A stretch of 64,000 nucleotides of DNA from Candidatus Poribacteria bacterium (GTDB taxonomy: Bacteria > Poribacteria > WGA-4E > WGA-3G). The notes below the pieces were generated by a model. That model was not told the origin of the DNA, made no database searches, and saw only the letters and a list, made by a program, of their open reading frames with translations. How positions within the stretch are numbered: position 1 is the stretch's first letter; the number at the start of each line of letters is the position of its first letter. Where the stretch lies: positions 2,688,001 through 2,752,000 of the forward strand of contig OZ244048.1 in assembly GCA_965215265.1 (NCBI GenBank), in the 5' to 3' direction. Made by a program: the position numbers and the translations under genes. Positions 12,436 through 43,983 of the stretch are shown here, one piece after another.

Positions 12436-12524
12436 TTCGTATATTTCAGCCCCATCAACGTCTAGGTAATCATAACTCGTGTGAAAATCTCGTCTGAGCC
12501 GTTCGATGTGTGGAAAATAAATAT
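12436..12524 (+). repeat. Dispersed ~90-bp repeat family, copy A
   Basis: TTCGTATATTTCAGC-29nt-TGTGAAAATCTCGTCTGAGCCGTTCGATGT. Confidence 0.85.
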
Positions 12525-12646
12525 GAATCATTCATTGTTATCCTCATATCGTGGTTGATAACCTAATTCAAGTTTGCACAAGTGTGGTAGGTGTCAGGTT
12601 ATTTTCAAACGGGTGGTTAACAACTGCAAGTTGACGCGATTCTGTC

Positions 12647-13204
12647 TCATCGGCCGTTAAATCGATTCATCGCAGTCAGAATGCCTTCACAGACAAAAGT
12701 TTCAATGGCTTCAGCTGCGCGATGCATAGCGCCTTGGATTTCTGGCAGCTCGGAATCTGAAAATTCGCTGAGGACGTAGTCGACTTGAGAACCGATAGGC
12801 TCCCCGATACCGATTCGCAAACGTGGAAACTCGGTTGTTTGTAGACAATGGATGATAGACTTCATGCCGTTATGTCCACCGTCGCTCCCCTTTCCCCGTA
12901 TCCGAATCACCCCGATATCCAAGTGTATGTCATCGTAGACGACACAGATGTCTGTGAGCGGGACTTTTAACCTCTTCACGATTGCAGCGACAGCTGCCCC
13001 ACTGTTATTCATGTACGTTAAGGGCTTAGCGAGAAGTAAGCGGATGTCGTGCCACTGCGCTTGTATAACAAGTGAGTTATAGCGCGAGATGACAGCATCC
13101 GATTTCACCTTTTCGCAGACTGCGTCAATAACGCGAAACCCAATGTTATGTTTGGTGTCTTCGTAGCGCGGCCCAGGATTACCCAGCCCGACTATCAATT
13201 TCAC
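12647..13204 (-). CDS. pth: Peptidyl-tRNA hydrolase
   Basis: LIVGLGNPG, HNIGF, KPLTYMNNSG, GGHNG. Confidence 0.97.
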   Translation of the reverse strand: MKLIVGLGNPGPRYEDTKHNIGFRVIDAVCEKVKSDAVISRYNSLVIQAQWHDIRLLLAKPLTYMNNSGAAVAAIVKRLKVPLTDICVVYDDIHLDIGVIRIRGKGSDGGHNGMKSIIHCLQTTEFPRLRIGIGEPIGSQVDYVLSEFSDSELPEIQGAMHRAAEAIETFVCEGILTAMNRFNGR

Positions 13205-13224
13205 AAGTTTATCTCTCCGCGTTG

Positions 13225-13809
13225 TTAAAATCGCAGCGGCTGTGAAAGATTCACATGCCCAGCAAGCGTCTCCACTGGATTGCCATCAATCAGAAACTGT
13301 ACCTGTTTAATGTCTGCCGGAAATGCATCAAAGACGGTTTTAAGAATGGCAGTCACCGTCAGAAATTCTGCATGCGTACCACCGATATGTCCCTCACTGA
13401 GATGCTGTGAAAAGTCCAAATACGCAGTGCCTTGGTTGTCAATGTATACTTCGTGGACCAAGGTCCCCCTCGGAATCGGATTTCTAAACCGTGGCGGGAC
13501 TGCTTCAATTAGGGCCGTGACTATCTGTTTGAGACGTTTAATATCCCCCGGAAAAAGGCGCAGATCCACTTTAACAGGTACAAGTTTAAAAGTATCGGAT
13601 TCTAAGAGAAATAGGTTTACGTTTTGTGAGGGTGGCGTAGCTTGAGGCCTAGCTGCTGCCGGTAGTGGAGGAGGGGGCAGCGGCATTGCAGGCTGCTTGG
13701 ATTGGGAAATCAGATAAAACGTGACAACGAGCCCAATCCCGACGATAATTAAGGTGATACCCCATATCCCTAAAAGACGGGAAAAACCAGCACTGTTTGA
13801 AGACCACAT
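13225..13809 (-). CDS. GerMN domain membrane protein
   Basis: TM helix, Pro-rich linker, IPRGT..AYLDFS..VQFLIDG..ETLAGHV; start codon uncertain. Confidence 0.85.
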   Translation of the reverse strand: MWSSNSAGFSRLLGIWGITLIIVGIGLVVTFYLISQSKQPAMPLPPPPLPAAARPQATPPSQNVNLFLLESDTFKLVPVKVDLRLFPGDIKRLKQIVTALIEAVPPRFRNPIPRGTLVHEVYIDNQGTAYLDFSQHLSEGHIGGTHAEFLTVTAILKTVFDAFPADIKQVQFLIDGNPVETLAGHVNLSQPLRF

Positions 13810-13834
13810 TCGTTTCCACCATACATTCTGAAGA

Positions 13835-15073
13835 TTACTCGCGCGGAATTGAAGCCAAATATGTCTGTATCGCGCGGACAATTGCCTTGCCTACTTCTGT
13901 ACTATATTCAGGGCTTGACAGTCTGGCTAAGTCATCCACATGAGTCAGATAGCCTAGTTCCACAAGCACAGCCGGCATATAGGCTTTCGACAATGCAGTT
14001 AATGGTAATTGCTCAATCATCACAGGATTTTCTGTTAGGAACCCCAATTCCTTTTGCAATACCTTAGCGAATTCTTGACTCTGTTTGAGGAAATTAGTTT
14101 GGACAAGCGTTTGCAACCGTTTTCCTGTCAACGTCAGATTCTCTGCTGTTGGAAAACGGAGCTGTCCGTTTGGGTTATTCAGGTAAATTCGTATACCGCT
14201 CTCGTTAGGCGAAAAAGATGCGTTGCAGTGTAAACTAATGAAGAGCTTGCCTTGGTTTCGGTTGGCAATTTGAATCCGTTCCAGTTGCGTCTTTTTCACA
14301 TCCGCATCACGTGTCAGGTAAACCTCGAATCCCTTTTTTTTGCTAAGAAAGAGAAGTTCTTGCGCGAGCGCGAGCACAATGTCTTTTTCAAAGATACCCG
14401 TGTTGCTTTCACAGCCGCGGTCGTTGAGGCCACCGTGTCCCGCATCTATGATGACAATCCATTCTTGAGAAGTATTGCCTTCGGTAGGTTCCCAGACAGT
14501 TTTGGGCATGAACCGTACCCGCTTCAAATTCGGATTGTAAAGCACATCAACGTCATCCAGTTCCGGTAGGACTTCCATAAAAAAAGCAATAGGCAACATC
14601 GGTTGCCCTTGGATAACGCGTGCGGGTTCAGAAAGTGTGAGTGTCCGTTTGCCGCCATCAATACTGACAGCCGGTTTCTCTATCTGCAAACGGAGCTGTT
14701 TGCCCTTAATTTTGAGCGTGAGCCGTTTTCTAGGCGTGTTATATTGCGTCGTCATCTCCGCATCGAAAACGGCTTTCACTGTATCAACGGGGAGGTAAAT
14801 CCGTTCATCATAAAGGTGAATTGGCACATCAGCAAGTGTTTTGCCGGCAGCGTCAATGAAACGGACTGAGGGTTCCTGCCCGAGGCTCCTGAATGCTACA
14901 AACACCACGAAAATTCCTAAAAAAAAGAGCCGAGGGCATAGGCACAGCCGGAGTACACGTTCTGAGCGTGAAACTAAAATCCGGAATATACACCTAAAAG
15001 ACTTCAGCGAGTCACGCAATCGGATACTCATGCCAAACCCTCTAAATAAACCCGAATACGGGACGCGTTTCAA
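13835..15073 (-). CDS. N-acetylmuramoyl-L-alanine amidase (Amidase_3) with N-terminal stalk-like domain
   Basis: IIDAGHGG, EKDI, FISLHCNA, PAVLVELGY; start codon uncertain. Confidence 0.9.
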   Translation of the reverse strand: MKRVPYSGLFRGFGMSIRLRDSLKSFRCIFRILVSRSERVLRLCLCPRLFFLGIFVVFVAFRSLGQEPSVRFIDAAGKTLADVPIHLYDERIYLPVDTVKAVFDAEMTTQYNTPRKRLTLKIKGKQLRLQIEKPAVSIDGGKRTLTLSEPARVIQGQPMLPIAFFMEVLPELDDVDVLYNPNLKRVRFMPKTVWEPTEGNTSQEWIVIIDAGHGGLNDRGCESNTGIFEKDIVLALAQELLFLSKKKGFEVYLTRDADVKKTQLERIQIANRNQGKLFISLHCNASFSPNESGIRIYLNNPNGQLRFPTAENLTLTGKRLQTLVQTNFLKQSQEFAKVLQKELGFLTENPVMIEQLPLTALSKAYMPAVLVELGYLTHVDDLARLSSPEYSTEVGKAIVRAIQTYLASIPRE

Positions 15074-15078
15074 TAGTT

Positions 15079-15759: not shown

Positions 15760-16085
15760 GATGTTAGGATTCCGATACCTTCCTTACAAGGACTCGTTTA
15801 TGAACGTTAGTTCTCGGGCTCATAGAAGCATATTAGGCAAGATTTTTCGAGGGTGGAATTTGGCTGGAATTCTGTAACGCCGTCAATCACGCGTTTTTAT
15901 ACCAACAGTTTTTCGTAGAAGGAGAGATTTTCTTTCGAAAAATCCTGATTAATATACGCCGACACCCCATCCCAGTTTTTGACGTATGCCGGGGTTTCTC
16001 GAGGATACCTCCTAAAAACTGAAAAACACCTTCTCTGTTCGCAGGATGCAAACCCGGCTGCAAGTTTAAAGATTAAAAGGGAAAA

Positions 16086-16157
16086 CAGGGCGGGTAGGAT
16101 TCGAACCTACGCATGCAGGTTCCAAAGACCTGTGCCTTACCGCTTGGCCACCGCCCT
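16086..16157 (-). tRNA. tRNA-Gln(UUG), CCA not encoded
   Basis: AGGGCGG acceptor stem pairing with CCGCCCT; D arm; anticodon arm CAGGT-CTTTGGA-ACCTG; T arm GTAGG-TTCGAAT-CCTAC; sits after ispE as is typical. Confidence 0.96.
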
Positions 16158-16243
16158 TTAATCAAATTTGAAGCAGGTGTATATGAGACTGCTAAGACTG
16201 AAACATCAGAACGCTTCCAAACTGCAAACCTATGAACCCTACT

Positions 16244-17149: not shown

Positions 17150-17161
17150 TATTTTATCACA

Positions 17162-18037: not shown

Positions 18038-18041
18038 TCTG

Positions 18042-30392: not shown

Positions 30393-30447
30393 CCGATGGA
30401 GACGATGGAGAATTGGTGCACTTTATCACCTCAACTCACACAACAAA

Positions 30448-33072
30448 TTAGAGATGCCGCCGATTCCAAAACGCGTAAATTAATGCCGTAATCGGAATGG
30501 CTAATACCAAGCCAAGCGTACCAGCGAGCAGACGCACAATCTCTGCAGACACCACACCGATGCTCAATAACTGCGCCGGCGGTGCCTTAAAAAAGTCCAG
30601 ATTCGGCGCAGCGATGGTGATTACCAACAGCAACTCCACCCCTAAATACGCAAACACTAACGTATTCACCATCGTGCCCAGAATATCCGTACCAACGTTC
30701 AATCCAGAAGCGATGAGCCGCCACGTCGGCATGTTCGGATTCGCACGACGAATCTCCTCCATGCTTGAGGCGACTTCAATCGCCCCGTCAACAGCAACAC
30801 CCAACACACCCATCAACATACCTGCTAACAGAATCTGCACGAAATCAAAAGGCGGTGTTCGCGTGGCTTCTACAATATCCGCTGAAATCGCATTCTCTAA
30901 ACCTGAAAAATGGAGATGGCGCTGCGCAAATAACACTATTAAACCCGAAACGAGAATGCCACCCATGGTACCCAGCACCGCTGAAAACGTCTTCCGGCTC
31001 GGACCGATAACAAATACTAACGACACAAACGCAACCGCACCGGAGGTTAACGTTACAATAAAAACAGCGTTCGCGCCTTGCAATATCATCGGCAGCATAA
31101 AGAAATAGATCACCGCCCCTGAAATTAGCATCGCGCACGCAGTACGAATCCCCTCTATCCTACCCACAACGATGATTAGCAATAACATACCCCCAACGAG
31201 CCACACCAGGAATCCATCGCGTCCATATTCTTGAACGATATTCACAAGCCCCATCCGTTCTGCATCCCCGCCGACACGGCATAGCACTATATCCCCCGGC
31301 TCCGCCGGTATGCTCAATAACGGCATATTGTGGTTAACAATATTTCGTAATACGATGCGCCGCCCTTTATACAGTCCGCTCAGCAACTCAACCTCAAGGA
31401 TGTGATGCTCTGTCTTCGTGTCATAAACATTAAGTGCCGGGACGGAAGAGGTGCTGCCCGATGCCGGAAACTGTTCGCGAATGCTGTACGTCTGCTCGTA
31501 TGTTTTATCTGAAATCAGCCAACGGCTATCTTTCCACGGTTTAATCGAAACAGAAACATCATCTGAAATAAGAATGTTCTGCCGAGTAAAGACTTCACGC
31601 AAACCCACCGAAAACATCTTATTGTCCAAATCCACGCTATAATCCGCATCAACCGAAAAAAGAAACTCCCCACTCGACTCAAGCAGCCGGATAACCTTCC
31701 CCTTCGCATACTCCGAACGGGTGAGGAGTTGTCCCTCTGCATCATGATTTTCACTAATTGTCGCAGAATTTCGCTGCACGCCATAGTAAACCGTAACCGT
31801 TCCAATTAGCACAAGTACCATCGTAATCGGCACCGCTATGCGCGACGCACTCCGCGGATTATCCGCACGGAACAATTCTTCTAACTCTGCCTCCGAAGGC
31901 AAATCGTCGTGGATATCCGATTGCTCTACCTTCGCGTACCGCGTCAAGAACCCGGCTATCCCTGCCGCAATCGGCACCGTCAACACCAATCCAATCGTTC
32001 CAACAACTGCTTGCACTATCGCAATCGATGTCGCCTCATCGTTCACCAGCCGCAGGAACGGGTAAAGCACCCCTGCCTCCGGAAAATCAATGCGCGGCAG
32101 CAACATGGTGATTAGGTGTGCACCCAGATACGCGAAAATCAACGTATCCGCCATCGTACCCATAATGTCGCGCCCCACATTCAAACCTGCACGAATCGAC
32201 TGCCGCACCGTGATGTTCGGGTTCACCTGTTTCACCTCGTGGACACTTGACGAAATCGACATGCTCACATCCATCATCGCGCCTACAGCGCCCAAAATGA
32301 TGCCCGCTGACAGGATACCCGCAAAATCCCAACCGTGCGACACAGGTGTCCGCCACAACGCAATCCCCAACTCTAAAAAGCCGAACTCTTGTGCCAAACC
32401 CGTCAGCACCAGCACATGTTGACTCAACACCGACAGTACCCCTACTGCTGCCAAGCCACCAAGCGTCCCCAGTACTCCTGAAACTACCTTGAAACTGAAA
32501 CCCGTGATTAGCACGAACGTCGTCAACGTTAAGACTACAGCAATCAATAGCGCAACCGCAATCGGATTGTAACCACTCAACGTCAGCGGAACCAGCAGAT
32601 AAATCACTGCCAATGCTGTGAAAAACAACATCAGAATTGCCCGTACACCTTTCGTGCCTGCAACTAAAATCATTAAAATGCATAAACCCGCGGCAAGATA
32701 GAGCAGAAACGGTGTCCGGAAATACTCGCGCATCCGAACACTCTCAAGCTGCGGATGCACCGGATCGCGGAGCGGAATATCCAGAAACAAGACATCGCCA
32801 CGGTGTAATACCCTATCCCCGAAAGCACGGCCCGTCCAGATATTATTCACTACAACCGTTTCGCCACGGAACTGTCCTGAAAGCACACGGAATGTTAAAA
32901 CCTGGTCCGCCTCATCGCTCGTATCTATGGATATAACACGCCCTAAACAGACCAGCACCTCTAACGCCCCATCGTGCGTAATCTCAGCAAAACGATACAG
33001 CTTAACATGCAGCACTGCAACGCTCACGAGAATCAGTAAGATACTTACCAGTTTAATGTTTCTTTCCCTCAT
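30448..33072 (-). CDS. Tandem YibE/F-family membrane protein (two fused domains)
   Basis: Two copies of GxxxDxxxxxxSSxxE...GLNVGxDIxGTMxxTLxFAYLG...GTxGLVLxxPI. Confidence 0.88.
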   Translation of the reverse strand: MRERNIKLVSILLILVSVAVLHVKLYRFAEITHDGALEVLVCLGRVISIDTSDEADQVLTFRVLSGQFRGETVVVNNIWTGRAFGDRVLHRGDVLFLDIPLRDPVHPQLESVRMREYFRTPFLLYLAAGLCILMILVAGTKGVRAILMLFFTALAVIYLLVPLTLSGYNPIAVALLIAVVLTLTTFVLITGFSFKVVSGVLGTLGGLAAVGVLSVLSQHVLVLTGLAQEFGFLELGIALWRTPVSHGWDFAGILSAGIILGAVGAMMDVSMSISSSVHEVKQVNPNITVRQSIRAGLNVGRDIMGTMADTLIFAYLGAHLITMLLPRIDFPEAGVLYPFLRLVNDEATSIAIVQAVVGTIGLVLTVPIAAGIAGFLTRYAKVEQSDIHDDLPSEAELEELFRADNPRSASRIAVPITMVLVLIGTVTVYYGVQRNSATISENHDAEGQLLTRSEYAKGKVIRLLESSGEFLFSVDADYSVDLDNKMFSVGLREVFTRQNILISDDVSVSIKPWKDSRWLISDKTYEQTYSIREQFPASGSTSSVPALNVYDTKTEHHILEVELLSGLYKGRRIVLRNIVNHNMPLLSIPAEPGDIVLCRVGGDAERMGLVNIVQEYGRDGFLVWLVGGMLLLIIVVGRIEGIRTACAMLISGAVIYFFMLPMILQGANAVFIVTLTSGAVAFVSLVFVIGPSRKTFSAVLGTMGGILVSGLIVLFAQRHLHFSGLENAISADIVEATRTPPFDFVQILLAGMLMGVLGVAVDGAIEVASSMEEIRRANPNMPTWRLIASGLNVGTDILGTMVNTLVFAYLGVELLLVITIAAPNLDFFKAPPAQLLSIGVVSAEIVRLLAGTLGLVLAIPITALIYAFWNRRHL

Positions 33073-33092
33073 GTCTTCTCTTTGTCCTTTCA

Positions 33093-33310
33093 CGTTTTTT
33101 TGTATATTTCAGCCCGATAACGCCTGATGTATTGTCAATGACTGTGAAAATCTCGTTTTTTTGTATATTTCAGCCCGATAACGCCTGATGTATTGTCAAT
33201 GACTGTGAAAATCTCGTTTTTTTGTATATTTCAGCTCGATAATGCATTATGTATTGTCAATGACTGTGAAAATCTCGTCGGAGCCTCTTGATGTATTGAC
33301 TCTAAATATA
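33093..33310 (+). repeat. Dispersed repeat family, copies B1-B3 (three tandem 61-bp units plus tail)
   Basis: Units start at 33093, 33154 and 33215; units 1 and 2 are identical; unit 3 continues into CGTCGGAGCC..TGATGTATTG. Confidence 0.92.
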
Positions 33311-33374
33311 ACCCTCCTTCTCCAACTCAGACAATACAAGCTCCTCAATCTCACGCGGATGCCCACCTTGCTCT

Positions 33375-35294
33375 CTAAAGGTACCTCCGGAGACGCTCTG
33401 CAACGCGCCGGGGGATGCCCTTTACAGCGAGAAGCTCATCCAGACTCGCCTCACGAATTGCTTCAACTGAACCGAAATGGTAGAGCAACGCCTGTTTACG
33501 CTTCGGCCCCACGTTCGGAATTGCATCCAAAACCGATTCGCTGAGCGCATTCTGCCGGAGCTGCCGATGATACGTCACTGCGAACCGATGCGCTTCATCG
33601 CGTAAACGCTGGATAAGGTGCAACGTAGGGTTATCCTCACGTAGCACTATCGGTTCGCGTTTACCCGGAACAAAAATCTCTTCAATCCGTTTCGCTAGTG
33701 CAATCATAGGAATTTTGGATATCACATCTGCCTTTGTCTGTTCTTGCTTGCCGGCACGATTGACAACCTGTTCAAGTGCGCCTTGTGCTGCCCCCAACTG
33801 CCCTTTTCCACCGTCTATCAGAATTAAGTCTGGCAATCGGCTAAATTTCTCATCTCCGAGCACTGCCCGGCGAAATCGCCGCGTCACCACCTCGCTCATC
33901 ATTGCAAAATCGTTCTGTCCGACAACCGACCGGATCTTAAACCGACGATACTCCGAAGAAACAGGTTCACCATCCTCCAGCACGACCAGGGAACCGACGG
34001 CAAAACTATCCCCTAAATTCGAAATGTCAAACGCCTCAATCCGTCTCAGCGGATGAGGCAGACGCAACAACTCCTGTAACTCAACCAGTGCCGGATGAAC
34101 CCCACGGCTATAGACAACGTGCTGCTCACGCTCCGTCAGCAGGAGGTCCGCGTTCTTCATCGCCAGCGTCACTAAACGTCTAAGTCGCCCGGCTTTAGCA
34201 ACATGCAACGTTACACGGCTACCTCGCTTTGCTGTCAACCACCTCTCAAGTAACTCTACCGACTCAAGAATCGGTGTCGGCAATACAATCGTCTTCGGAA
34301 CGAAAACCGCATTCTGGTAATACTGCGAGATAAACGCCTTTAAGGCATCAGCTGCAAAATCCGGATTCGCATCGTTCAGATAATAATGCTCACGTTCTAA
34401 GAACTTGCCGTCTCGAACCCGTAATACCTGCACACACGCCACATCATTCTTCACTGCAACCCCGATAACATCTTCATCCACCGCCGTGACGCTATCCAAA
34501 CTGTGTGCTTTAAACGCATCCTGAATCTCCTTGAGCATATCCCGATATTTTGCCGCTGCCTCAAAATCAAGTCCTGACGCGGCCGCCGCCATCTGCTCCC
34601 TCAACTCTGCAACAACCGCATCTGTCTGACCGTCTAACACTTTACACAATTTTTGGACGATTCCACCGTAATCTTCAACATCTATCTTATCCGCACAAGG
34701 CCCCGGACACCGACCGATATGATAATCCAAACACATCCGGTGCCGGTTCCCTGACTTTTCAAGCGAGAGATGGCAAGTACGGATAGGAAATAACTTCGTC
34801 AACTGTTTCAAGATCTGCCGCGTCGAACGGACTCGAACGTACGGCCCAAAATACCGGCTCCCGTCACTCTCCGCTTTACGGGTAATCTGAATCCGCGGAA
34901 ACGGTTCGTTCACCGTTACACGCAAATACGGGTAACGCTTGTCATCTTTCAGCTTTACATTGTAGCGCGGCTGATGCGCCTTAATTAGGTTATTCTCCAG
35001 AATCAGTGCCTCCATTTCCGTCTCCGTCACGATGTAGTCCACTGCTGTCACATAACGCATCAACTGTGCTGTCATCGGAGACATCTCCGCTGACTCTTGA
35101 ACGTTCACCTTACGCGCCCCTTTGGAATTCCTTTGAACATTACGCCAATACGAACGTACACGTTCCCGCAAACGTGAGCTCTTACCGACATAAATAATTG
35201 CACCATCTGAGGCTTTCATCAGGTAAACCCCCGGTGCATTCGGCAGAGATTGCCACGGTTCTGGGCGGTTCTTTAAAGATTGTTCATGCCCCAT
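33375..35294 (-). CDS. uvrC: Excinuclease ABC subunit C
   Basis: GIY-YIG (PGVYLM..IYVGKS), RIEAFDISN, IDGGKGQL, RDEAHRFA, HhH. Confidence 0.97.
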   Translation of the reverse strand: MGHEQSLKNRPEPWQSLPNAPGVYLMKASDGAIIYVGKSSRLRERVRSYWRNVQRNSKGARKVNVQESAEMSPMTAQLMRYVTAVDYIVTETEMEALILENNLIKAHQPRYNVKLKDDKRYPYLRVTVNEPFPRIQITRKAESDGSRYFGPYVRVRSTRQILKQLTKLFPIRTCHLSLEKSGNRHRMCLDYHIGRCPGPCADKIDVEDYGGIVQKLCKVLDGQTDAVVAELREQMAAAASGLDFEAAAKYRDMLKEIQDAFKAHSLDSVTAVDEDVIGVAVKNDVACVQVLRVRDGKFLEREHYYLNDANPDFAADALKAFISQYYQNAVFVPKTIVLPTPILESVELLERWLTAKRGSRVTLHVAKAGRLRRLVTLAMKNADLLLTEREQHVVYSRGVHPALVELQELLRLPHPLRRIEAFDISNLGDSFAVGSLVVLEDGEPVSSEYRRFKIRSVVGQNDFAMMSEVVTRRFRRAVLGDEKFSRLPDLILIDGGKGQLGAAQGALEQVVNRAGKQEQTKADVISKIPMIALAKRIEEIFVPGKREPIVLREDNPTLHLIQRLRDEAHRFAVTYHRQLRQNALSESVLDAIPNVGPKRKQALLYHFGSVEAIREASLDELLAVKGIPRRVAERLRRYL

Positions 35295-35297
35295 CGC

Positions 35298-35999
35298 TCA
35301 ACTCCCCTTCTCATATACTGCCCGATAAATCTCTCTACCCTCTGCAACGTACTTCATCTCAAAATTCGTCGGAATGTGTTCATCGTCACACAAATTCTGT
35401 TCAACACGTCGAAGCGGCGTGAACCCCCGAACTCGCTCTTGAATCTCCAAAAAATACTCTGCATAGTCTGTCACCACATACAGTCGACCGCCGTCTGCCG
35501 TTAACGTGCAGGTTACGCCTGACAGAAACTCCGGATTCCGAAAAATACGGCGTTTACGCTGCCGTTTCTTCGGCCACGGATCGGGGAAATAGATATGATA
35601 CGCCTGAACAGATTCTGCAGCAACATAACGATTCAAAAAGTAATTTGCATCCGTCCAGACCAGCCTGACGTTATCGAACATCCCATTTTGCTTCTCTACA
35701 GCAAAATGCCGCATGTACTTCTCAAACCGTTCACGTGTAATCTCGACGTACTTTTGCGCCCGCTCCACCCCAACGTAGTTAATATCCGGTCGTCGTTTTG
35801 AAGCCTCAAGCAAAAACCGTCCCTTTCCGCTCCCGACCTCGATTTCCACCGGATTCGCATTCCCAAAAATCGCCGCCCAGTCAATCGGCGTACTCACCTC
35901 GCTGAGACTCACAGCCGTCTCTCCAACAATATCTATCAACTGCGAGTGTCGCGTTGTCGATTCATAATAGATGGCATTATAGCGAGGTTCTTCATTCAT
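35298..35999 (-). CDS. trmB: tRNA (guanine-N7)-methyltransferase
   Basis: EIEVGSGKG, FPDPWPKKR, TD, TNFEMKY. Confidence 0.95.
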   Translation of the reverse strand: MNEEPRYNAIYYESTTRHSQLIDIVGETAVSLSEVSTPIDWAAIFGNANPVEIEVGSGKGRFLLEASKRRPDINYVGVERAQKYVEITRERFEKYMRHFAVEKQNGMFDNVRLVWTDANYFLNRYVAAESVQAYHIYFPDPWPKKRQRKRRIFRNPEFLSGVTCTLTADGGRLYVVTDYAEYFLEIQERVRGFTPLRRVEQNLCDDEHIPTNFEMKYVAEGREIYRAVYEKGS

Positions 36000-36049
36000 A
36001 TTTTTATATATCTCCGTACCATCACCGTTTATTTATTCTTTTGATGGTT

Positions 36050-36176
36050 CGTGTGTAAATCTCGTCGGAGGTTAACTAGGTAATGTCTTTAAAATCTAAA
36101 CATAAACGGCTCAGATGAGATTTTCACAGGTTTTAACATTGCAGCAGCCTTTATTGGGCTGAAATATACGAAAAAT
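36050..36176. repeat. Dispersed repeat family: partial copy E (+, 36050-36071) and full copy C (-, 36088-36176), inverted
   Basis: Plus strand GTGTGTAAATCTCGTCGGAG; minus strand TTTTCGTATATTTCAGC-29nt-TGTGAAAATCTCATCTGAGCCG. Confidence 0.85.
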
Positions 36177-36188
36177 CTTCCTCCTATA

Positions 36189-38915
36189 CTATGTACCCTC
36201 AGCATCCAATGCTGCTAATATTTTCTCACGCACCGATTGCGTATCCGGAACTGGCTTAACATAGAACCGGTCCACCGCCTGCCCATCTAAGGCTGAACAC
36301 TTACACATCTCAACATTCAAACCCAGCTTCGCGAGGATGCCACTGAAATAGTACAGAAACCCGACCTTTTCCTCACCTCTCACAACAATCTCCGTATAGT
36401 TTCGCGTCGATTCAACCCGTACATCGTCAAAATGCCAGCTCCCACTCGTGCTAACGTAGTGCTTTTCAAAAATTTCATCCAATGTTGTCTCCTGCGCCAT
36501 CAAGCCTCGAATGTCAAAATCAAGTGAACGTTTCAGCTCTTCATCCAGCGGCATCGGTTCCCGTTGATGCGGCGGCTGATGAACCAGCCGGTAAATTTCG
36601 ATCTCTACATTTGTATCCCGTTTCGTGTAGACCTGCGCATCCCGCACATCTATGTTATTCGCAAAAAAGAGACCGCTCACCGTGTGGAGCTTACCTAGAC
36701 GACTGGCACTACACAAGTGCAATTCCGTGAAACCCGGCTTATCCGTAAATTGGATAATCGCAGCACTCGCACTTTGTGCATCACTCGTGCCTATGTTGTT
36801 TTCCGCTTGCGTAACCATCCTAATGTGCATCGCTATTTCCGCATGTGTCACGCCGATACGGTAAGAGACGGGCATCTGCTGCAGGAATGCCTGAAATTCC
36901 TCCGGTGGCGAATACACGCCCCACTGGGACTCATCTTGACCGACAAAACGACTCCGGATTACTTCATACAATCTTTTAAGGTTATGCTTAACGAGATTAC
37001 TAAAGTTGTGTGGACCGTTCGCTTTAGAATCACAATAGGTCAGCAGATAGAGCGCTGTTAAACGTTCCAACGAATTTACCTTATCACAAAATGCCGAAAT
37101 CATCCGTTCATCCCACTGATGATAACGCGCTAACACAATCATTGTCAAATGCTCACGGATCAGAAAACAGATCTCCTCTGTTTGCTGCGCCGTAAAACCG
37201 AACGCAGGCGAAATACGACGCGCTTTCTCCGCACCCGTCTCCGGATGCCGAGAATCCGGTTTATCAATATCGTGCAGGAACAGGGCCATGTATAGAAGAC
37301 TCGCATCCGATAACGAACGGAAAGCACCGTTCAACTCCTCCAATTCTGAGGCCGGAGAAGACGACAGCACCGAACCCATACGCGCAACACCGAACGGACT
37401 GCTTGACTCCGTTTGGCGAATTTCATCCAAATATCCAATCGCAACCAATGTATGCTTACCCACAGTATAAGGGTCTAAACTCCGTTCACTCCGTGTCATC
37501 ATCGCCTTTTCAAAACGCTTACCACCTTCTCCGAGGCGAGCCAGAATCCCTAAACGGTGTAGACGGGTTAGACTCTTCTCAACGTCACCCGGCAAGTTCA
37601 TCAACTCCGCCATGCGTCCTTGAAAACTTTTTAAGTCGAACGCCGAAGCATAAGCAAAAATAAAACTCGCAAGAGAAGCATCAATTTCAAAATCATACTG
37701 TTGGAAATACGAAAATAACTCAAACAGTTCATCTACATCAAACTCTCCGAAGTTATTATCAATGCAGTATAACAAATCGCGACGCACACCCAGTACATCC
37801 GAAAACGGTATACCGTTCGCCAGGAGCCGACGAATCAACAACTCCGCTTTCAAGTGCAAATACTTCGCCTGCGTGTAATACGCCTCCATAAATTCATACC
37901 GGCCGGCCTCCGACGGCTCACCATCGGCCGCCACCATCGGATATCCCAGTGCCTCCGCTATTTGTGATTGAAGCTGATCTCCTGCTTCCGGATGGTAAGA
38001 TAGAACATCGTGCGATGCATTCGCCAAAACATGCAGAAGATTCCGAACCTGCAAAACATAATCAAGAGCCGCCGTCAAATCCTCATCACCCAAACGCCCA
38101 TACAACTCAGAAATCGACCTAAACTCTGAAAGTCCATACATCCAAAACGCATACTGGATAGTTCGCAAACCACCACGCCCAATTTTTACATCCGGTTGAT
38201 TCAGGTAGATGGTCTCCTCCGATTCCTTGAAAGTCGCCTCCTTCGATTTCAGTAAGTCCAAAACCAGACCTACATCGCATTTCTCTTCCTGAACCGCTTT
38301 TTTAAAACAGGGCAGAAGCGCAGTATCACCCACAATAAAACGCATATCAATCAACGCCGTGATGTCCTGATAATTCCACTTACTCATTTCACCTATCGGC
38401 CGGTAAATAAAACTAAACTCAAACCCCGGTATTACCGTATGCAGACTATCGAAAAAATCGTAAAACCAACGAATCAATTCAAGTGTCCGCTCATCGTAAA
38501 CCTCCTCAAGGTCTACCGTAGACGTGTACACAACGTCTACATCTGAATAGTAACACAACTCACGCCGCCCGTAACTCCCAACCGCATACAACGCAATATC
38601 CGGAACCCATGAATCCTCCGTAGATACGCCCGGCTTCTCTACAGCCATACCATCCTCAGCCTGCAACTTCGATATCCATTCAAGTTGCTGCGCATATTCT
38701 GACTGAATCTGATAACTCGCAACTTGATAAACCTTCCGGATAGCCGCATCCCAGATCTCCGTATGCCAAGAACACGCAGAAAAACCACCCTCACCATCCA
38801 ATACGCATGTTCTGAGACGAGTGCGCTCCGCTTGGATGAATGCTGATAACTGTTTTTGTAGCACGCTAAAAGAAATATTCAAATTCGGAACGTATGATTC
38901 AACACAATTTTCCAT
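36189..38915 (-). CDS. glnD: [Protein-PII] uridylyltransferase/uridylyl-removing enzyme
   Basis: AVGSYGRRELCYYSDVD nucleotidyltransferase motif, PDVKIGRGGLR, HD domain (YTVGKHT..LHDIDK), two C-terminal ACT domains. Confidence 0.92.
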   Translation of the reverse strand: MENCVESYVPNLNISFSVLQKQLSAFIQAERTRLRTCVLDGEGGFSACSWHTEIWDAAIRKVYQVASYQIQSEYAQQLEWISKLQAEDGMAVEKPGVSTEDSWVPDIALYAVGSYGRRELCYYSDVDVVYTSTVDLEEVYDERTLELIRWFYDFFDSLHTVIPGFEFSFIYRPIGEMSKWNYQDITALIDMRFIVGDTALLPCFKKAVQEEKCDVGLVLDLLKSKEATFKESEETIYLNQPDVKIGRGGLRTIQYAFWMYGLSEFRSISELYGRLGDEDLTAALDYVLQVRNLLHVLANASHDVLSYHPEAGDQLQSQIAEALGYPMVAADGEPSEAGRYEFMEAYYTQAKYLHLKAELLIRRLLANGIPFSDVLGVRRDLLYCIDNNFGEFDVDELFELFSYFQQYDFEIDASLASFIFAYASAFDLKSFQGRMAELMNLPGDVEKSLTRLHRLGILARLGEGGKRFEKAMMTRSERSLDPYTVGKHTLVAIGYLDEIRQTESSSPFGVARMGSVLSSSPASELEELNGAFRSLSDASLLYMALFLHDIDKPDSRHPETGAEKARRISPAFGFTAQQTEEICFLIREHLTMIVLARYHQWDERMISAFCDKVNSLERLTALYLLTYCDSKANGPHNFSNLVKHNLKRLYEVIRSRFVGQDESQWGVYSPPEEFQAFLQQMPVSYRIGVTHAEIAMHIRMVTQAENNIGTSDAQSASAAIIQFTDKPGFTELHLCSASRLGKLHTVSGLFFANNIDVRDAQVYTKRDTNVEIEIYRLVHQPPHQREPMPLDEELKRSLDFDIRGLMAQETTLDEIFEKHYVSTSGSWHFDDVRVESTRNYTEIVVRGEEKVGFLYYFSGILAKLGLNVEMCKCSALDGQAVDRFYVKPVPDTQSVREKILAALDAEGT

Positions 38916-39249
38916 GTTTTTTCGGTAAAAGCCTCCTGATTGAGAAAAGACTCACCACTGAATTCACTACCCCTCCTTCTTCATATTATATCAGAGCCAG
39001 CCCTCAAAAAGCAACACTTTTTATCAAGCCCACCCTTACAGATCCGGTTAATCCACAATATAGAAATGTATACCTAAACACCGTAAAGGCGAGCGCCTGA
39101 GTGCGATGTCACGCTTTGCGCGGAATGCCACCTAAGGGACTCCCACCCGGAGAAGCCCATAAACGGCTTCATACCCGCTCAATCCTATCAAACACTCATA
39201 GCGTTGAGGCGAATTTGATTCGGTACACCACGTCTATATGTCGGCACCT

Positions 39250-39279: not shown

Positions 39280-39334
39280 CCTAGCAAAATATCGCTCCCA
39301 GAAGACACCTAAAAACATACACGGCAGCAATATC

Positions 39335-40153: not shown

Positions 40154-41574
40154 ACAAACGTCCTAATATCCTTTTTATCAATACCGACCAGCACTCCTGG
40201 GATGCCCTCTCTGCCTACGGAAATCCGTATCTTTGCACCCCTCATATTGATGAACTGCACAGAAATGGAACTTCCTTTCGCCGCTCATTCTGTACAGATC
40301 CAGTCTGTGCTGCTGCACGCTCCAGTTGGGCAACCGGGTTATATACCTCTGAAACTGGTGTCCCCTTCAACGCCGGGCATCTGCACCCAGAAATCCCTGA
40401 CCTCGGGCAAGTGCTTAATGCAGCCGGCTATAAAACCTTTCACTGTGGAAAGTGGCATGTACCAGGCAGAAACGTCCGGCAAAGCTTCCGCACACTCTAT
40501 TACGGAAAACGACACATCGGCGCAGGCGGTGCCGCATATTACGATGCAGCATCCACACACGCCGTCGCTGATTTTTTAACTAACTACGACACCGACGAAC
40601 CGTTTTACCTCCAAATCGGTTACGTCAACCCACACGACGTATGCGAATATCTGCACAACCACGAAGAAAAACACATCCCAAATCCTGTCCAACAAGGCAT
40701 GATTTCCGAGGAACTCTTGCCACCGCTCCCTCAAAACTTCCACTACGACGAACGCGAAACCGTACTACATCGCGTCTGTCGGCGAATTGATGACGCGCTT
40801 ATCCACGCTCCAATCCTAACAGCCGTTCGCACCTGGCACGAACTTCACTGGCGTTACCTACGATGGAACTATTACAGATTCATCGAAAAAGTTGATGCTG
40901 AAATTGGCAGAGTCCTCGCCCTACTACGCGAGACATCGCTGCACCGCAATACCCTCATCATCTTCAGTGCTGACCACGGTGAAGCTGGCGGCAGCCATCA
41001 AATGTTCCAGAAGTTCACGCTTTACGAAGAGAGCATACGAGTCCCATTCATCGTGGCTTGTTTAGGAGACGAAATGCAAATACCGAAAAATCGGTTCGAC
41101 GATACGCATTTCGTCTCCGGCGTTGACTTATTCCCGACTGTCTGTGATTACGCACGGATTGACATCCCCGATGCACTACAAGGAACTAGTCTTCGGCCAC
41201 TTTTAGAAGCAACGCAGAATCCCTGGCGCGATTATGCCTACATAGAGAGCAATTATTGGGGACGTGCAATTGTCACGGACAATTATAAATACATTACTGA
41301 ATACAAACCGAAACCGCTCGAGGATTTCGTACCACCCGGACCCGACGCACAGAATCTTGGGCTCGCGCAGCTCTTCAACCGGCACGATGATCCCGGAGAA
41401 ACCAAAAACCTCGCACAGGACATAAACTACAGCCACAGCCTTAAAACATGCCGAGATAAACTGCTTGCTGCTGAGGAGAAACTCCATCGACAACAAATTG
41501 TACATCCAAATCCGAGACGCGTCATCTCGAATTGGGGAGACCGGTTACGCACATATTGGCAACATAGCAGATAA
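40150..41574 (+). CDS. Sulfatase (S1, Cys-type)
   Basis: RPNILFINTDQH, CAAARSSWATG, GKWH, NPHD, SADHGE, LYEESIRVP; GGAGG SD. Confidence 0.92.
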   Translation: MNKRPNILFINTDQHSWDALSAYGNPYLCTPHIDELHRNGTSFRRSFCTDPVCAAARSSWATGLYTSETGVPFNAGHLHPEIPDLGQVLNAAGYKTFHCGKWHVPGRNVRQSFRTLYYGKRHIGAGGAAYYDAASTHAVADFLTNYDTDEPFYLQIGYVNPHDVCEYLHNHEEKHIPNPVQQGMISEELLPPLPQNFHYDERETVLHRVCRRIDDALIHAPILTAVRTWHELHWRYLRWNYYRFIEKVDAEIGRVLALLRETSLHRNTLIIFSADHGEAGGSHQMFQKFTLYEESIRVPFIVACLGDEMQIPKNRFDDTHFVSGVDLFPTVCDYARIDIPDALQGTSLRPLLEATQNPWRDYAYIESNYWGRAIVTDNYKYITEYKPKPLEDFVPPGPDAQNLGLAQLFNRHDDPGETKNLAQDINYSHSLKTCRDKLLAAEEKLHRQQIVHPNPRRVISNWGDRLRTYWQHSR

Positions 41575-41599
41575 GGATTCGGGTGGGCGGGAGAGACCT

Positions 41600-42000
41600 C
41601 TATACGATTGCCAATTTTCAAGGGGACTTGATCTCGATAACCACATTGCCGTGCGATAAGTTCTCCGGTATCACGACAAAATGTCTTCCAGATTTAGCCT
41701 CTGTTTGGCTGTTTCTCAGCTAACGCCACATCTCATCCAGTTCAAGCACAACCGCATCTGTATCAGGTTCAGGCCGTTCTGCGTCTGCGGTACTGAAGTG
41801 GCGTATCCATCGCATGATGGTGCTAGGAGCAACATCAAAGATTCTCGAGATGGCACTCATGGAAAGTCGATGGCAGTAAAGAAACATAGCTAATGTGTGT
41901 TCGGCAAGCGCTCTGCCGTGCAAGTTTCTTTCTGTCCATTGATAGTTGCAACGTTTGCACTTATAACCTTGCTTTTAGTTGACGAATCCATTTTTTGCTT
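41600..42000 (-). mobile_element. Degenerate IS1-family transposase remnant (InsA/InsB)
   Basis: KNGFVN*KQGYKCKRCNYQWT zinc ribbon; HTH LSMSAISRIFDVAPSTIMRWI; LELDEMW*; then in a shifted frame IWKTFCRDTGELIARQCGYRD; internal stops. Confidence 0.85.
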
Positions 42001-42047
42001 GACCTATTTGTCAAACGTGCATAAAATTCTGAAGAGTGGAGGCAAAA

Positions 42048-43109
42048 ATGAACAAATATCGTGTAGCCATCATCGGGTGCGGACGCATGGGACAAAACTA
42101 TGCACAAGCATACACTACCTATCCCGACACCCAAATCGTCGCAATTGCAGACATCAACGCAGAAAGACGACAGATACTCGGAACACGTTTCAACGTCGCT
42201 GCCCTCTATCCAGACGCGGAAACCCTACTCCGCGAGGTCGTACCGGATATCGCAGCTATTGTCACACCGACTAAGTACATGAGAGATGCTGTCATCGCTT
42301 GTGCCGAAGCAGGTGTAAAGGGTATCTCCACTGAAAAACCGATTGCAGGCATCCTACAAGATGCCGACGCAATGGTTGATACGTGCGCCGAACGCAATGT
42401 CGTCTTCGCAGGCGGCAACCTACAACGGGCCATGAACGAGGTCCAAGAAGCCGCCAAACGCATACACAGCGCTGATGTCGGAAAACTCAAAGGCGCTGCC
42501 GTACACGGATTCGGAGGCGAAATCTCCGGCGGCGGATGCCAACACATCTCTATCCTGCGACTCTTCACCAATGCTGAAATCACTGAAGTTACCGCCTGGG
42601 GCACCCCACATGAAGCCTTAAACACCGAAACCGACGATGGAATCATTGTTCACGGGCACTTCCAGCTCTCCAACGGAATCCACTGCAACGTCTTCGGCAC
42701 TCCTACTCCCTACCGCGGCGTAGATGTCTGGAACGACGAATATCTCCTCCGATGGGATTGGAAACCGCCTGAGATTTTCAAGGGCACCGATGAAAAGGGG
42801 CATCGCAAACGTCTCCGTATTAAATACACAACTTATCCATGGAGCCAATTCGGATACCTCACCGGTTCCATCCGCTCTTTCTTAGCCGCCGTCGCAGGCG
42901 AGGGACAACCCTGGATTACCGGCAAAGACCTGCGACAAGCGTTGGAGGTCGCAATTGCCACCAAACTGTCCGCACAACGCAACAGCACCACCATTAAACT
43001 CCCCTTGGTAGATAGAACCGCAGCGCTCTACCCCCGGCCATATCGATGGCTCGGCGGAGACCTAACAGGAAATCCGCAAACCGTCAATGAAGCAATAGTC
43101 TCACAATGA
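42048..43109 (+). CDS. Gfo/Idh/MocA family oxidoreductase
   Basis: VAIIGCGRMG, TEKP; GGAGG SD. Confidence 0.9.
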   Translation: MNKYRVAIIGCGRMGQNYAQAYTTYPDTQIVAIADINAERRQILGTRFNVAALYPDAETLLREVVPDIAAIVTPTKYMRDAVIACAEAGVKGISTEKPIAGILQDADAMVDTCAERNVVFAGGNLQRAMNEVQEAAKRIHSADVGKLKGAAVHGFGGEISGGGCQHISILRLFTNAEITEVTAWGTPHEALNTETDDGIIVHGHFQLSNGIHCNVFGTPTPYRGVDVWNDEYLLRWDWKPPEIFKGTDEKGHRKRLRIKYTTYPWSQFGYLTGSIRSFLAAVAGEGQPWITGKDLRQALEVAIATKLSAQRNSTTIKLPLVDRTAALYPRPYRWLGGDLTGNPQTVNEAIVSQ

Positions 43110-43945
43110 TAGCCACTCCGGAGAACCTAAGCATGAACGAAGAACAGAAATACCTATTCGATCTCACCGGGTACTTGATTCTTGAAAACGCATTGAGCTC
43201 AGAAGAAGTCACACTGTGTAACAAAGCAATAGACCATCACATTGAGCGACTGAGAGAACGCGAAAACTCACTCGCCGGAGGTTCTGAAGCAGGAGGCGGA
43301 ACCGCACACCGAATGGACATGGGCGGGATGCTCGCCTGGGAAAAACCGTGGTGTGAACGCTTCCGAAAACTCCTAGTACATCCTAACGTCAAGCCATACC
43401 TCCAGGAAATTCTTGGCAAAAAATACCGGCTTGATCACGGGCCCGGTCTCATCGCCATGGAAAACGGCACCGAAGGCGGCACCCTACACGGCGGCGGGAT
43501 TGAACGCCCCAATTTTTCCGAAGCCTACTTCTTCAAATACGGACGAATCTACACCGGACTCACCGTCGTTGAATACATGCTCGCTGACGAAAACCCCGGC
43601 GACGGCAGCTTAGCACTCATCCCCGGCAGTCACAAAGCCAATTTACCGTGCCCAAGCAGTATGAAACGCTACGAAAAACACCAGCACTTGGTCCAGGAAG
43701 TCAACGCCAACGTCGGCGATGCCGTCATCTTTACCGAAAACTTGACGCACGGCCCTCTCCCTTGGAAAGCCAAACACCAACGACGTGCGCTGCTCTATAA
43801 ATTCAGCCCCGGATTCCAAGCATACAGTGCCGGCGCACACCAGATCTCATATCCAGAATACATTGAGGCGATGACACCTGAACAACGGGAAGTTTTCGTA
43901 TCTTTCAGCTCATCAACGGCTGATGTTGTGTCAATCACTGTATAA
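43106..43945 (+). CDS. PhyH-family Fe(II)/2OG enzyme, HxG variant; C-terminus supplied by a repeat element
   Basis: EQKYLFDLTGYL, LHGGG, PGSHK, FTENLTHG. Confidence 0.85.
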   Translation: MIATPENLSMNEEQKYLFDLTGYLILENALSSEEVTLCNKAIDHHIERLRERENSLAGGSEAGGGTAHRMDMGGMLAWEKPWCERFRKLLVHPNVKPYLQEILGKKYRLDHGPGLIAMENGTEGGTLHGGGIERPNFSEAYFFKYGRIYTGLTVVEYMLADENPGDGSLALIPGSHKANLPCPSSMKRYEKHQHLVQEVNANVGDAVIFTENLTHGPLPWKAKHQRRALLYKFSPGFQAYSAGAHQISYPEYIEAMTPEQREVFVSFSSSTADVVSITV

Positions 43946-43983
43946 ATCTCGTCAGAGCCATTCGATGTATTGAATCATAACAT
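43893..43983 (+). repeat. Dispersed repeat family, copy D (overlaps the PhyH stop codon)
   Basis: TTTTCGTATCTTTCAGC-29nt-TGTATAAATCTCGTCAGAGCCATTCGATGTATTG. Confidence 0.85.

Follow-up and report, generated by a model that had tools for sequence, protein, structure and literature searches.

Copies of a repeat of about 90 nt, each carrying two conserved boxes, occur at four places in a 64,000-nt stretch of a Candidatus Poribacteria genome (hereafter the window), which raises the question of what kind of element they represent. An initial annotation, made from the sequence alone, offered a paired protein-binding or recombination site, a non-autonomous mobile element, or a small structured RNA family. 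Here we describe the repeat in the window and across the genome, and weigh these possibilities against each other.

Repeat copies in the window

All of the copies first reported are present in the window. The exact pattern TTYGTATMTTTCAGC-N29-TGTRWAAATCTC was found at six sites, 12436 (+), 33099 (+), 33160 (+), 33221 (+), 36117-36172 (-) and 43895 (+), whereas 100 shuffles preserving the dinucleotides averaged 0.00 matches. A profile search (model R1) gave a total of seven units at four loci, with a GC content of 0.32-0.40, against 0.48 for the genome. The first locus is a single unit of the TTTCA-head subfamily, formed by an arm and its tail (12434..12521, +; R1 66.1 bits, E 7e-20; pattern match at 12436), which is antisense to both flanking genes, a TolB-like ORF (11250-12260, -) and pth (12647-13204, -).

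The second locus is an array (33094-33309) that takes up the greater part of the space separating a YibE/F-like ORF (30448-33093, -) from uvrC (33375-35294, -). It starts with two tandem 61-nt core modules on the plus strand (33094..33217; modules 33094-33156 and 33157-33217, aligned to R1 positions 2-64 and 4-64), each of which starts at box A, stops halfway through box B and lacks a tail, and terminates in a full unit with a complete box B and a tail (33218..33309, +; R1 76 bits, E 5e-23). A CRISPR array, built of a 32-nt repeat of box B plus box A and 29-nt spacers, was considered for this locus and discarded, since the "spacers" are identical or near-identical within the array and belong to subfamilies that are repeated across the genome.

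The third locus is a doublet, a 179-bp imperfect palindrome (35999-36177) that spans the interval from trmB (35298-35999, -) to a GlnD-like ORF (36189-38915, -). Its right arm belongs to the TTTCA-head subfamily (36086..36177, -; R1 80.7 bits), and its left arm, of which the initial annotation saw only a part at 36050, is a whole arm of another, TCTCC-head, subfamily (35999..36094, +; R1 54 bits, E 4e-16, model positions 3-93). The fourth locus, copy D (43894..43981, +; R1 73.6 bits), is a single unit lying in sense orientation within the 3' end of a PhyH-like ORF, at odds with the earlier statement that all copies sit at gene boundaries.

Anatomy of the unit

The unit consists, in order, of a T-run of 2 to 8 nt, box A, about 40 nt of subfamily-specific sequence, box B (AAATCTCGTCGGAG) and a tail that holds a short central hairpin. 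The copy of about 90 nt is one arm of a modular element, whose 61-nt core begins with box A, ends with the first half of box B and is able to repeat in tandem; units measure 61-95 nt and doublets 170-180 bp. Box A is made up of a core, TTYGTMTA, and a variable head, and the five nucleotides following the core are TCTCC in 198, TTTCA in 106, CAGGA in 95 and CTGCA in 58 of 731 heads. The box A originally given, ending in TTTCAGC, is one among several head variants.

The 29-nt spacing, initially described as invariant, turned out to be strongly modal instead: the distance from head to box B is 49 nt in 325 of the 731 heads, 50 nt in 52 and 48 nt in 26, and 234 heads have no box B inside 200 nt. 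With a stricter pattern, 283 cases had the modal box spacing, 48 were at +1 and 22 at -1. The spacer does diverge between copies, as had been noted, but it is subfamily-specific rather than free, and conservation is 91-99% at unit positions such as T33, G34 and T38. At a distance of 25%, the 360 distinct ungapped units fall into approximately 31 clusters.

Abundance, arrangement and relatives

The expectation of many copies genome-wide was borne out, with 665 matches to a four-copy profile and 827 to a 129-copy profile. These 827 units, equally split between the strands, are found at 405 loci and amount to 64.7 kb, or 1.34% of the 4.83 Mb genome. Using crude ORF calls that span 85% of the genome, 519 of 665 units are less than 10% covered by ORFs. 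A copy at least 95% identical and more than 5 kb away exists for 158 of the 544 full units, and 15 have an identical one.

The units accumulate between genes, beside and within one another, as singles, 61-nt tandem arrays, truncated stacks and tail-to-tail doublets with inverted box A ends. Neighbouring units are convergent in 189 cases and divergent in 23, and 89 loci are pure doublets, whose lengths cluster at 170-172 and 178-180 bp. In 48 cases successive heads are 61 nt apart, and a box B remnant precedes 69 of 540 units; beyond these nested remnants, no 5' target motif was found. The absence of terminal inverted repeats reported earlier is true of single arms, but inverted termini do exist in the doublets, because arms are often placed tail to tail as 170-180-bp imperfect palindromes. 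The two arms of a doublet are only 50% identical, compared with 58% for random pairs of units, and TCTCC/TCTCC doublets number 0 of 129, against 9.5 expected. Among single units, 94 of 134 are antisense to co-directional flanking genes (p 3.5e-6), and no replichore orientation bias was found.

Relatives of the repeat were detected in 11 of the 101 family genomes searched, the other 90 giving no match. At least 22 diverged units with the same layout and box B are present in a genome of the same genus (G001) and at least 37 in one of another genus (G004), and in a third genus 8 of 54 genomes have 1-3 matches each. Box B is retained across the three genera, in which UvrC orthologs are 72-78% identical, while the remainder of the unit has changed; this conservation suggests that something reads box B. 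As to the lineage of the source genome, no SusD match was found in it, so that it is not a member of Bacteroidota, and one database entry for a YibE/F-like protein gives a lead, though no more than that, to Candidatus Poribacteria. A loose IUPAC pattern, run against contigs of other genomes, gave among the matches listed 13 chance singles in unrelated phyla. A full-text literature search for the motif strings retrieved no papers, and the literature on Poribacteria with MITE or repeat terms held nothing relevant.

Insertion events

Two clean filled/empty pairs were found, and in both the single arm is a discrete insertion of 86-88 nt without target-site duplication, in line with what had been observed in the window copies. 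In the first, an 86-nt unit of the source genome (G000, 2303315-2303400) is missing from a paralogous site near 1051620, and the flanks are flush, with no duplication. The second is copy D, which in the alignment with the G004 ortholog of the PhyH-like ORF is an 88-nt insertion between conserved codons, again without duplication. The ortholog is uninterrupted and matches residues 80-264 of 279 with 85% identity. The PhyH-like ORF (43106..43945, +) takes its last 16 codons and stop from the inserted copy, and its displaced original end, of eight codons (MEAPHIRH) and a stop, is intact immediately after copy D (43982..44008, +) and matches the C-terminus of the ortholog, so that at least one gene end was rewritten by insertion.

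A paralogous region present in nine copies has five empty copies, one with an antisense single, two with sense singles plus a head fragment, and one with a doublet, the insertion points being about 13 nt apart. Two other candidates were rejected: an apparent empty site at 817242, compared with 1394547, actually holds a different repeat joined to an arm fragment, and a doublet lying in a multi-copy DNA methylase segment was simply carried along when that segment was duplicated.

We also compared three window loci with contigs from four related runs that contain 63-85% of the words sampled from positions 30400-39000; about 1% of sites are different in X6. No presence/absence difference was seen, a weak result given that short-read contigs break in repeats, and the run contigs pass from the unique flanks into the repeat at identical sites. 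No clean excision joint was found in the four runs, the three loci showing only broken contigs, spikes in depth and chimeric joints that link repeat copies. In G001, G004 and G002 the intergenic DNA beside uvrC and trmB is too diverged to align, so that no exact empty sites could be placed there.

Search for a mobilising enzyme

The initial annotation saw no cognate transposase, and the enzyme families searched for across the genome agree with this. Y1/RAYT (PF01797) gave no matches in the source genome, while control genomes respond, and TnpB-type, IS110 and rve domains were likewise without matches. DDE_Tnp_1 has only four weak matches, and the genome also contains one reverse transcriptase, two resolvases and one broken integrase. 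Outward-facing pairs of neighbouring units 400-6000 bp apart number only nine, and they enclose unrelated ORFs of varying size and number. No insertion sequence (IS) with matching ends was found among the multi-copy segments examined (Rpn, DNA methylases, an MgtE_N protein and RM enzymes). Rpn/Transposase_31 genes, which are abundant, were rejected as the mobiliser on the basis of a mismatched phyletic pattern, as they occur in 87 of the 101 family genomes and are absent from G001, which has repeat relatives, and of the lack of flanking units.

Comparison with known systems

A likeness in layout exists to BOX of Streptococcus pneumoniae, which is also modular, non-coding, mostly intergenic and present in about 100 or more copies, and in which an internal module in variable tandem number stands between mutually pairing end modules; here, the 61-nt core repeats in tandem and the box A ends pair in doublets. 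The comparison is one of layout; the host belongs to an unrelated lineage, and Rfam gave no match for the present repeat. In the passages of PMC3049150 on BOX, a likeness to the ends of the IS ISSpn2 is noted, whereas no IS with such ends was found here. BOX, with the arrangement boxA-boxB(n)-boxC, has a separate middle module, whereas here the tandem module is the arm itself, single arms are mobile on their own, and there are approximately 31 subfamilies.

REP, BIME and REPIN sequences share with the present repeat the occurrence in hundreds of copies, as singlets and inverted doublets, in intergenic mosaics of alternating orientation. REPINs, too, are not known to produce target-site duplications. 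As described in two articles, REPs are short G+C-rich stem-loops (PMC3184786), often arranged in BIMEs with alternating orientations (PMC2817692). However, their unit is a G+C-rich stem-loop of about 20-40 nt, in contrast to the AT-rich unit of 61-95 nt described here, which is unfolded alone; moreover, the present genome has no Y1/RAYT gene, and the arms of its doublets come from different subfamilies.

MITEs, for which we follow the definition given in a passage of PMC3049150, include Correia, Nezha and ERIC-like elements and are also small, AT-rich, non-coding and intergenic; the doublets resemble them in having inverted termini and highly paired predictions, and the occasional remodelling of gene ends is shared as well. 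In contrast to MITEs, there is no target-site duplication in two of two clean comparisons, there is no IS with matching ends among the multi-copy segments examined, and the single arm, which has no inverted termini, is an insertion unit in its own right. PATEs derived from IS200/IS605 are, likewise, not known to duplicate their target and have hairpin-rich ends, but here there is no TnpA (Y1) or TnpB-type match, no conserved 5' target motif and no replichore bias.

Nature of the repeat

The repeat is probably a new family of the ordinary selfish DNA kind, MITE/BIME/BOX-like. The filled/empty pairs, the copy number, the near-identical distant copies and the intergenic enrichment all favour the non-autonomous mobile element among the possibilities first raised, and we consider that the copies probably represent arms of small, AT-rich, non-coding elements, mobile now or until recently, that form a lineage-specific family. 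Both boxes would be read by an enzyme supplied in trans, whose geometry would be reflected in the near-fixed distance between them; this distance would also hold any two doublet arms in register, even across subfamilies. Such an enzyme would lie outside the usual transposase kinds. A paired protein-binding or recombination site, as initially suggested, fits this reading, and altered gene ends and transcript structures would be side effects on the host rather than the family's raison d'être. Against the mobile family stand the lack of an identified mobilising enzyme, the small number of clean filled/empty pairs and the unchanged window loci in the four related runs, although the latter is a weak short-read test. 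In addition, a simple inverted-duplication origin does not predict the unlike arms of the doublets or the complete lack of TCTCC pairs.

It is conceivable, but in our view unlikely, that the repeats are now mainly DNA sites used by the host, in a BIME-like manner, with a conserved host protein (nucleoid-associated, topoisomerase-like or a recombinase) binding box B and perhaps box A, and the elements being kept for chromosome organisation or operon-internal regulation. The retention of box B in three genera while the rest of the unit changed, the tightly modal spacing, the unaltered window loci and the antisense bias relative to transcription are all consistent with such a role. However, the absence of the repeat from 90 of the 101 family genomes indicates that no general host function is needed, the interrupted gene end and the irregular truncated mosaics are as selfish spread predicts, and no binding protein was identified.

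Returning to mobile elements, the mobiliser could be a kind of enzyme not yet recognised as a transposase and encoded somewhere in these genomes, which would read the boxes at a fixed distance on one arm and insert that arm without duplication. We regard this more specific proposal as rather unlikely. If it held, box B in three genera, the lack of known transposases, and an orientation bias that follows transcription and not replication would be signs of a new transposition or recombination chemistry rather than of a decayed MITE family.

Alternatively, there may be no dedicated mobiliser, and host recombination, slippage and template switching between copies could have produced the present pattern after an ancient burst. 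The lack of a transposase, the 61-nt arrays and truncated stacks with their recurrent junctions (including the units that follow a box B remnant), the mosaic heterotypic doublets and the variable T-run would all agree with this. Nevertheless, these processes cannot put a complete, flush-ended 86-88-nt unit into unrelated unique sequence, which was seen twice, and near-identical copies at far-apart unique sites also speak against them, making this explanation improbable.

The remaining proposal is that the elements act as RNA, either through long hairpins that doublets would form in a transcript of their neighbours or of the opposite strand, thereby stabilising, cleaving or attenuating it, or as a small antisense RNA family. 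The doublets do fold into long hairpins, in which box B forms a conserved stem of 14 bp; the doublet at 35999-36179 (+) has a predicted RNA fold of -39.7 kcal/mol (z -2.43), in which box B pairs with its own inverted copy. Where doublets lie between co-directional genes, the strand antisense to the genes is the more stably folding one in 51 of 76 (Wilcoxon p 0.002), and of 14 heterotypic box B stems, 10 have G-T pairs favouring that strand, a difference short of significance (p 0.18); yet this strand asymmetry may also arise if the T/G-rich strand, which folds better, is selected against in mRNA. In the single unit, the column pair 27-47 covaries (GC 167, CG 119, GT 27; 92% pairable), and no continuous helix runs along its diagonal, where pairable fractions range from 0.18 to 0.92. 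RNAalifold predicted no pairs, and no consensus fold, for 129 single units, and the fold z-scores of three window units on both strands lie between -1.19 and +0.84, with a predicted structure that differs from unit to unit. An Rfam search of the window at the gathering threshold returned only tRNA, and for positions 32900-36300 there were no matches even at E<=1. In the same interval no promoter-like or terminator-like site lies inside the units, the nearest promoter-like match (33334-33305, -) touching only the last bases of the array tail, and the order of the unit, with the T-run before the hairpin and an A-run after it, is the reverse of that of an intrinsic terminator. These results lend the single unit no support as a small structured RNA, and we find an RNA role quite improbable overall.

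Small interspersed repeats are common, and another family is in itself unsurprising; the scientific value of this one lies in what moves single arms free of duplication with no recognisable transposase, and in what reads box B. On the practical side, the repeats account for the breaks that short-read assemblies of this organism show at these sites, and model R1, together with alignment A1, can be used to mask or annotate more than 800 sites.

Abundance and placement of the repeat family

The family is a real, very abundant and lineage-restricted set of small mosaic mobile repeats of a well-known kind. In the window, the two-box pattern with exactly 29 nt between the boxes matches six times, against none in 100 shuffles, and the four loci of the initial annotation carry copies whose sequences read as described there. 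A profile built from an alignment of 129 genomic copies finds seven units at these loci: a single unit at 12434-12521 (+), an array of three at 33094-33156, 33157-33217 and 33218-33307 (all +), a doublet, that is, two units (arms) lying tail to tail, at 35999-36094 (+) with 36086-36177 (-), and a further single unit, copy D, at 43892-43982 (+). What had been taken for a partial copy at 36050 is actually a whole unit of another subfamily, since the profile matches 35999-36094 as a unit.

The guess of many copies genome-wide proved right. Across the single 4,833,177-bp contig (GC 48.1%), of which the window forms positions 2,688,001-2,752,000, an nhmmer profile built on the four window copies detects 665 units (E<1e-3), and the 129-copy profile raises this to 827 units, spread over 405 loci and totalling 64,743 bases (1.34% of the genome) and evenly split between the strands (415 +, 412 -). 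By crude ORF calls, which cover 85% of the genome, 519 of the 665 units are less than 10% ORF-covered, 77 lie partly within calls and 69 are covered over at least 90%. Repeat loci are distributed among co-directional (256/2467), convergent (34/392) and divergent (24/392) gene pairs about as often as the numbers of such pairs would predict, and 39 more fall within called ORFs.

Unit anatomy and box spacing

A unit starts with a T-run, 2-8 bases long and most often 5, followed by box A (core TTYGTMTA, with G17 and C20 almost invariant), a subfamily-specific stretch, box B (AAATCTCGTCGGAG) and a tail with a short hairpin that forms the midpoint of doublets. The first eight positions of box B are each 91-99% conserved and the remaining ones 51-98% (G63 51%, T61 78%). 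The five bases following the core of box A set the head type, and types among 731 heads include TCTCC (198), TTTCA (106), CAGGA (95) and CTGCA (58); the box A initially described is that of the TTTCA type. At a distance of 25%, 360 distinct ungapped 66-nt units fall into 31 clusters, the four largest having 124, 57, 45 and 34 members.

The proposal of an invariant 29-nt spacing holds as to strong length constraint and fails as to invariance, because a box A-to-box B distance of 49 nt dominates (325 heads) yet 50 nt (52) and 48 nt (26) also occur, other values being rare; 234 of the 731 heads lack a box B within 200 nt. Nor is the spacer freely diverging, as had been supposed: the interior is instead subfamily-specific, with a few positions conserved throughout (T33, G34, T38). 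Further small repeats lie inside units, namely a palindrome of ~70-80 nt with the core GGCAGGATAGGTATTCT (81 matches in the genome at ≤1 mismatch) and a 17-19-nt insert, GCCCRCCCACCCAAATCC (25 exact matches). In 5 of the 129 aligned units the insert directly follows the TCGTCG of box B, and in two its reverse complement lies within the spacer; examples of such inner repeats are found at the loci L046 (11491-11597) and L043 (8688-8794) of the same genome.

Singles, doublets, arrays and stacks

With the 129-copy profile, singles account for 172 loci and pure tail-to-tail doublets for 89, and neighbouring units are convergent in 189 cases versus divergent in 23. Doublet lengths group at 170-172 bp and 178-180 bp; their box A termini are inverted, and they fold into a long hairpin whose conserved stem forms between box B and its inverted counterpart. 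Head-to-tail arrays, such as that at 33094-33309 in the window, have a 61-nt period (61 nt in 48 cases, 60 in 8, 62 in 9), and in stacks a unit is broken off after ~28-29 or 35-36 nt and the next one starts there.

Among 129 doublets the main arm pairings are TCTCC/CAGGA (30), TTTCA/CAGGA (16), CTGCA/TCTCC (15) and TTTCA/TCTCC (12), and TCTCC/TCTCC is never seen, versus 9.5 expected from arm frequencies. Doublets are thus no recent inverted duplications, their arms being less alike (mean identity 50%) than random unit pairs (58%). A common arm length would hold the boxes of unlike arms in register, which is plausibly one reason why the spacing is constrained.

Insertion and mobility

Many copies are young: among 544 full units, 158 share at least 95% identity with a copy lying over 5 kb from them, and 15 have one that is identical. 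When both flanks of every locus were compared with the genome, one clean intragenomic filled/empty pair was obtained, in which the 86-nt single unit at 2303315-2303400 is absent from a paralogous site near 1051620, where the flanks abut exactly, with no duplicated bases. Copy D, as an 88-nt insert at 43894-43981, lies within a PhyH-like ORF whose last eight codons are replaced by 16 element-encoded codons (43106-44008 with the displaced original end). The ortholog in G004, a genome of another genus, is 85% identical over residues 80-264 and continues with eight codons and a stop; those eight codons (MEAPHIRH) and the stop stand intact at 43982-44008, straight after the insert, again with no duplicated target bases. 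The absence of target-site duplication reported initially is therefore borne out at both insertions.

In a paralogous region present in nine copies beside Rpn-gene repeats, five copies are empty, one holds an antisense single, two hold sense singles plus a head fragment and one a doublet; the insertion points differ by ~13 nt, which indicates repeated events within one small region. Against current activity, and as a weak test since contigs break in repeats, contigs of four related short-read runs lead from unique flanks into repeat sequence at the same three loci of the window, and contain no clean element-removing joint there. These runs contain 63-85% of sampled words of window 30400-39000, and one of them, X6, differs at ~1% of sites.

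Search for a mobiliser

No cognate transposase had been noticed in the window, and the genome agrees: Y1_Tnp (IS200/IS605 TnpA and RAYT), Cas12f1-like_TNB (TnpB-type), DEDD_Tnp_IS110 and rve have no matches and DDE_Tnp_1 four weak ones, while control genomes responded in each case. Also present are a single reverse transcriptase, two resolvases, of which one is broken, and an integrase that is likewise broken. The sole reverse-transcriptase match, at C1:1420096-1420737 in an open frame of 356 aa, adjoins an Rpn segment, and a repeat doublet (1416026-1416189) is found a few kb away.

When the genome is compared with itself, 163 segments of ~600 bp or more prove to be repeated, forming 36 groups, and one representative each of groups 1-6, 9, 13 and 15 by size was annotated; no classical IS was found among them. 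They encode a 336-aa MgtE_N-domain protein (25 segments), Rpn/Transposase_31 (two groups, 19 and 16), N6_N4 DNA methylases of 429 and 484 aa (17), an Eco57I-like restriction-modification enzyme (7) and ECF sigma-factor fragments (3), and four groups have no Pfam match (6, 4 and 3 segments, and a second ORF beside the Rpn gene). The methylase segments include 223065-227409, 549210-550259, 818595-819838 and 4115224-4117441 on C1 (loci L027-L031), and a doublet beside some copies moves as part of the duplicated segment. Systematic placement of units at segment ends was not seen in the three largest groups.

Rpn/YhgA-like genes (Transposase_31) exist in many copies, at window 56960-58081 (-) and in ~35 other genomic segments, with 24 matches in the genome. 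They were rejected as the mobiliser: they occur in 87 of the 101 genomes examined in the taxonomic family, most of these 87 lacking the repeat, and are absent from the same-genus genome G001, which carries repeat relatives.

RNA folding and strand asymmetry

Rfam gives only a tRNA in the window at the gathering threshold and nothing at E≤1 over 32900-36300, and RNAalifold predicts no pair on the 129 aligned units. Fold z-scores of three window units on both strands range from -1.19 to +0.84, with unrelated structures; that of the doublet is -2.43. By mutual information a single column pair, 27-47, covaries (GC 167, CG 119, GT 27; 92% pairable), with no continuous helix along its diagonal, and consensus rows give small local hairpins per subfamily in differing registers. 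Over 32900-36300, units contain no promoter-like or terminator-like patterns, the closest promoter-like match (33334-33305, -) overlapping just the final bases of the tail of the array.

Of 134 single units flanked by co-directional genes, 94 lie antisense to them (p 3.5e-6), and in 51 of 76 doublets the more stable fold is that of the strand antisense to the neighbouring genes (Wilcoxon p 0.002); a test of G-T pairs in box B stems shows a like tendency without significance (10/14, p 0.18). The asymmetry reflects either selection against the T/G-rich, better-folding strand in mRNAs or transcription-related, strand-specific insertion. There is no replichore orientation bias; the GC-skew curve is very asymmetric (cumulative minimum near 0.66 Mb, maximum near 4.46 Mb, arms very unequal), and called genes are without strand bias on either arm.

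Relatives and known repeat kinds

BLAST with one copy finds no match in G001 and no more than fragments in G004. The 129-copy profile finds diverged units in 11 of the 101 genomes of the taxonomic family, including the present one, with at least 22 matches in G001 and at least 37 in G004 (lower bounds, 41 candidates per genome being scored) and at least 1-3 each in 8 of the 54 genomes from a third genus. Their layout is the same, with a T-run, a box A-like head, ~41-43 nt and an almost unchanged box B, and G001 has a 90-nt direct tandem form. Box B is conserved well beyond the rest of the unit, being nearly unchanged in relatives whose UvrC orthologs are 72-78% identical to that of the window. 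In two related genera the intergenic DNA upstream of uvrC is full of other, unrelated dense repeats (L025 of G004, 7340-8690; L026 of G002, 8005-8470), and G004 additionally has an ORF-sized insert there; repeat-rich intergenic DNA seems general in the taxonomic family.

The family behaves like small interspersed repeats of other bacteria. To judge from PMC3049150 and PMC2817692, respectively, it resembles BOX elements in its modularity and in a tandemly variable module, which here is the arm itself, and shares singlets, inverted doublets and mosaics with REP/BIME/REPIN. Unlike the latter, it lacks a RAYT, and its units are not built as short G+C-rich hairpins. Small size and AT-richness are shared with classical MITEs, and inverted ends are present in the doublet though not in single units, but neither target-site duplication, in the two clean comparisons, nor a cognate IS was found. 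A full-text literature search, subscription journals and supplements being outside its scope, returned no paper for the motif strings and nothing relevant for Poribacteria and repeats. The remaining interest lies in the missing mobiliser, the target-duplication-free insertion and the heterotypic doublets, and further in the orientation bias linked to transcription and the retention of box B across genera.

The genome gives no match to SusD and accordingly does not belong to Bacteroidota; a single Atlas row, no more than a lead, connects it with Candidatus Poribacteria. The window itself is rich in sulfatase, Gfo/Idh/MocA, PhyH, WD40 and TPR genes, a content typical of host-associated or polysaccharide-degrading lineages; at 54291-56297 (+) a 668-aa protein consisting nearly entirely of WD40 repeats adjoins TPR, sulfatase, PhyH and Gfo/Idh/MocA genes.
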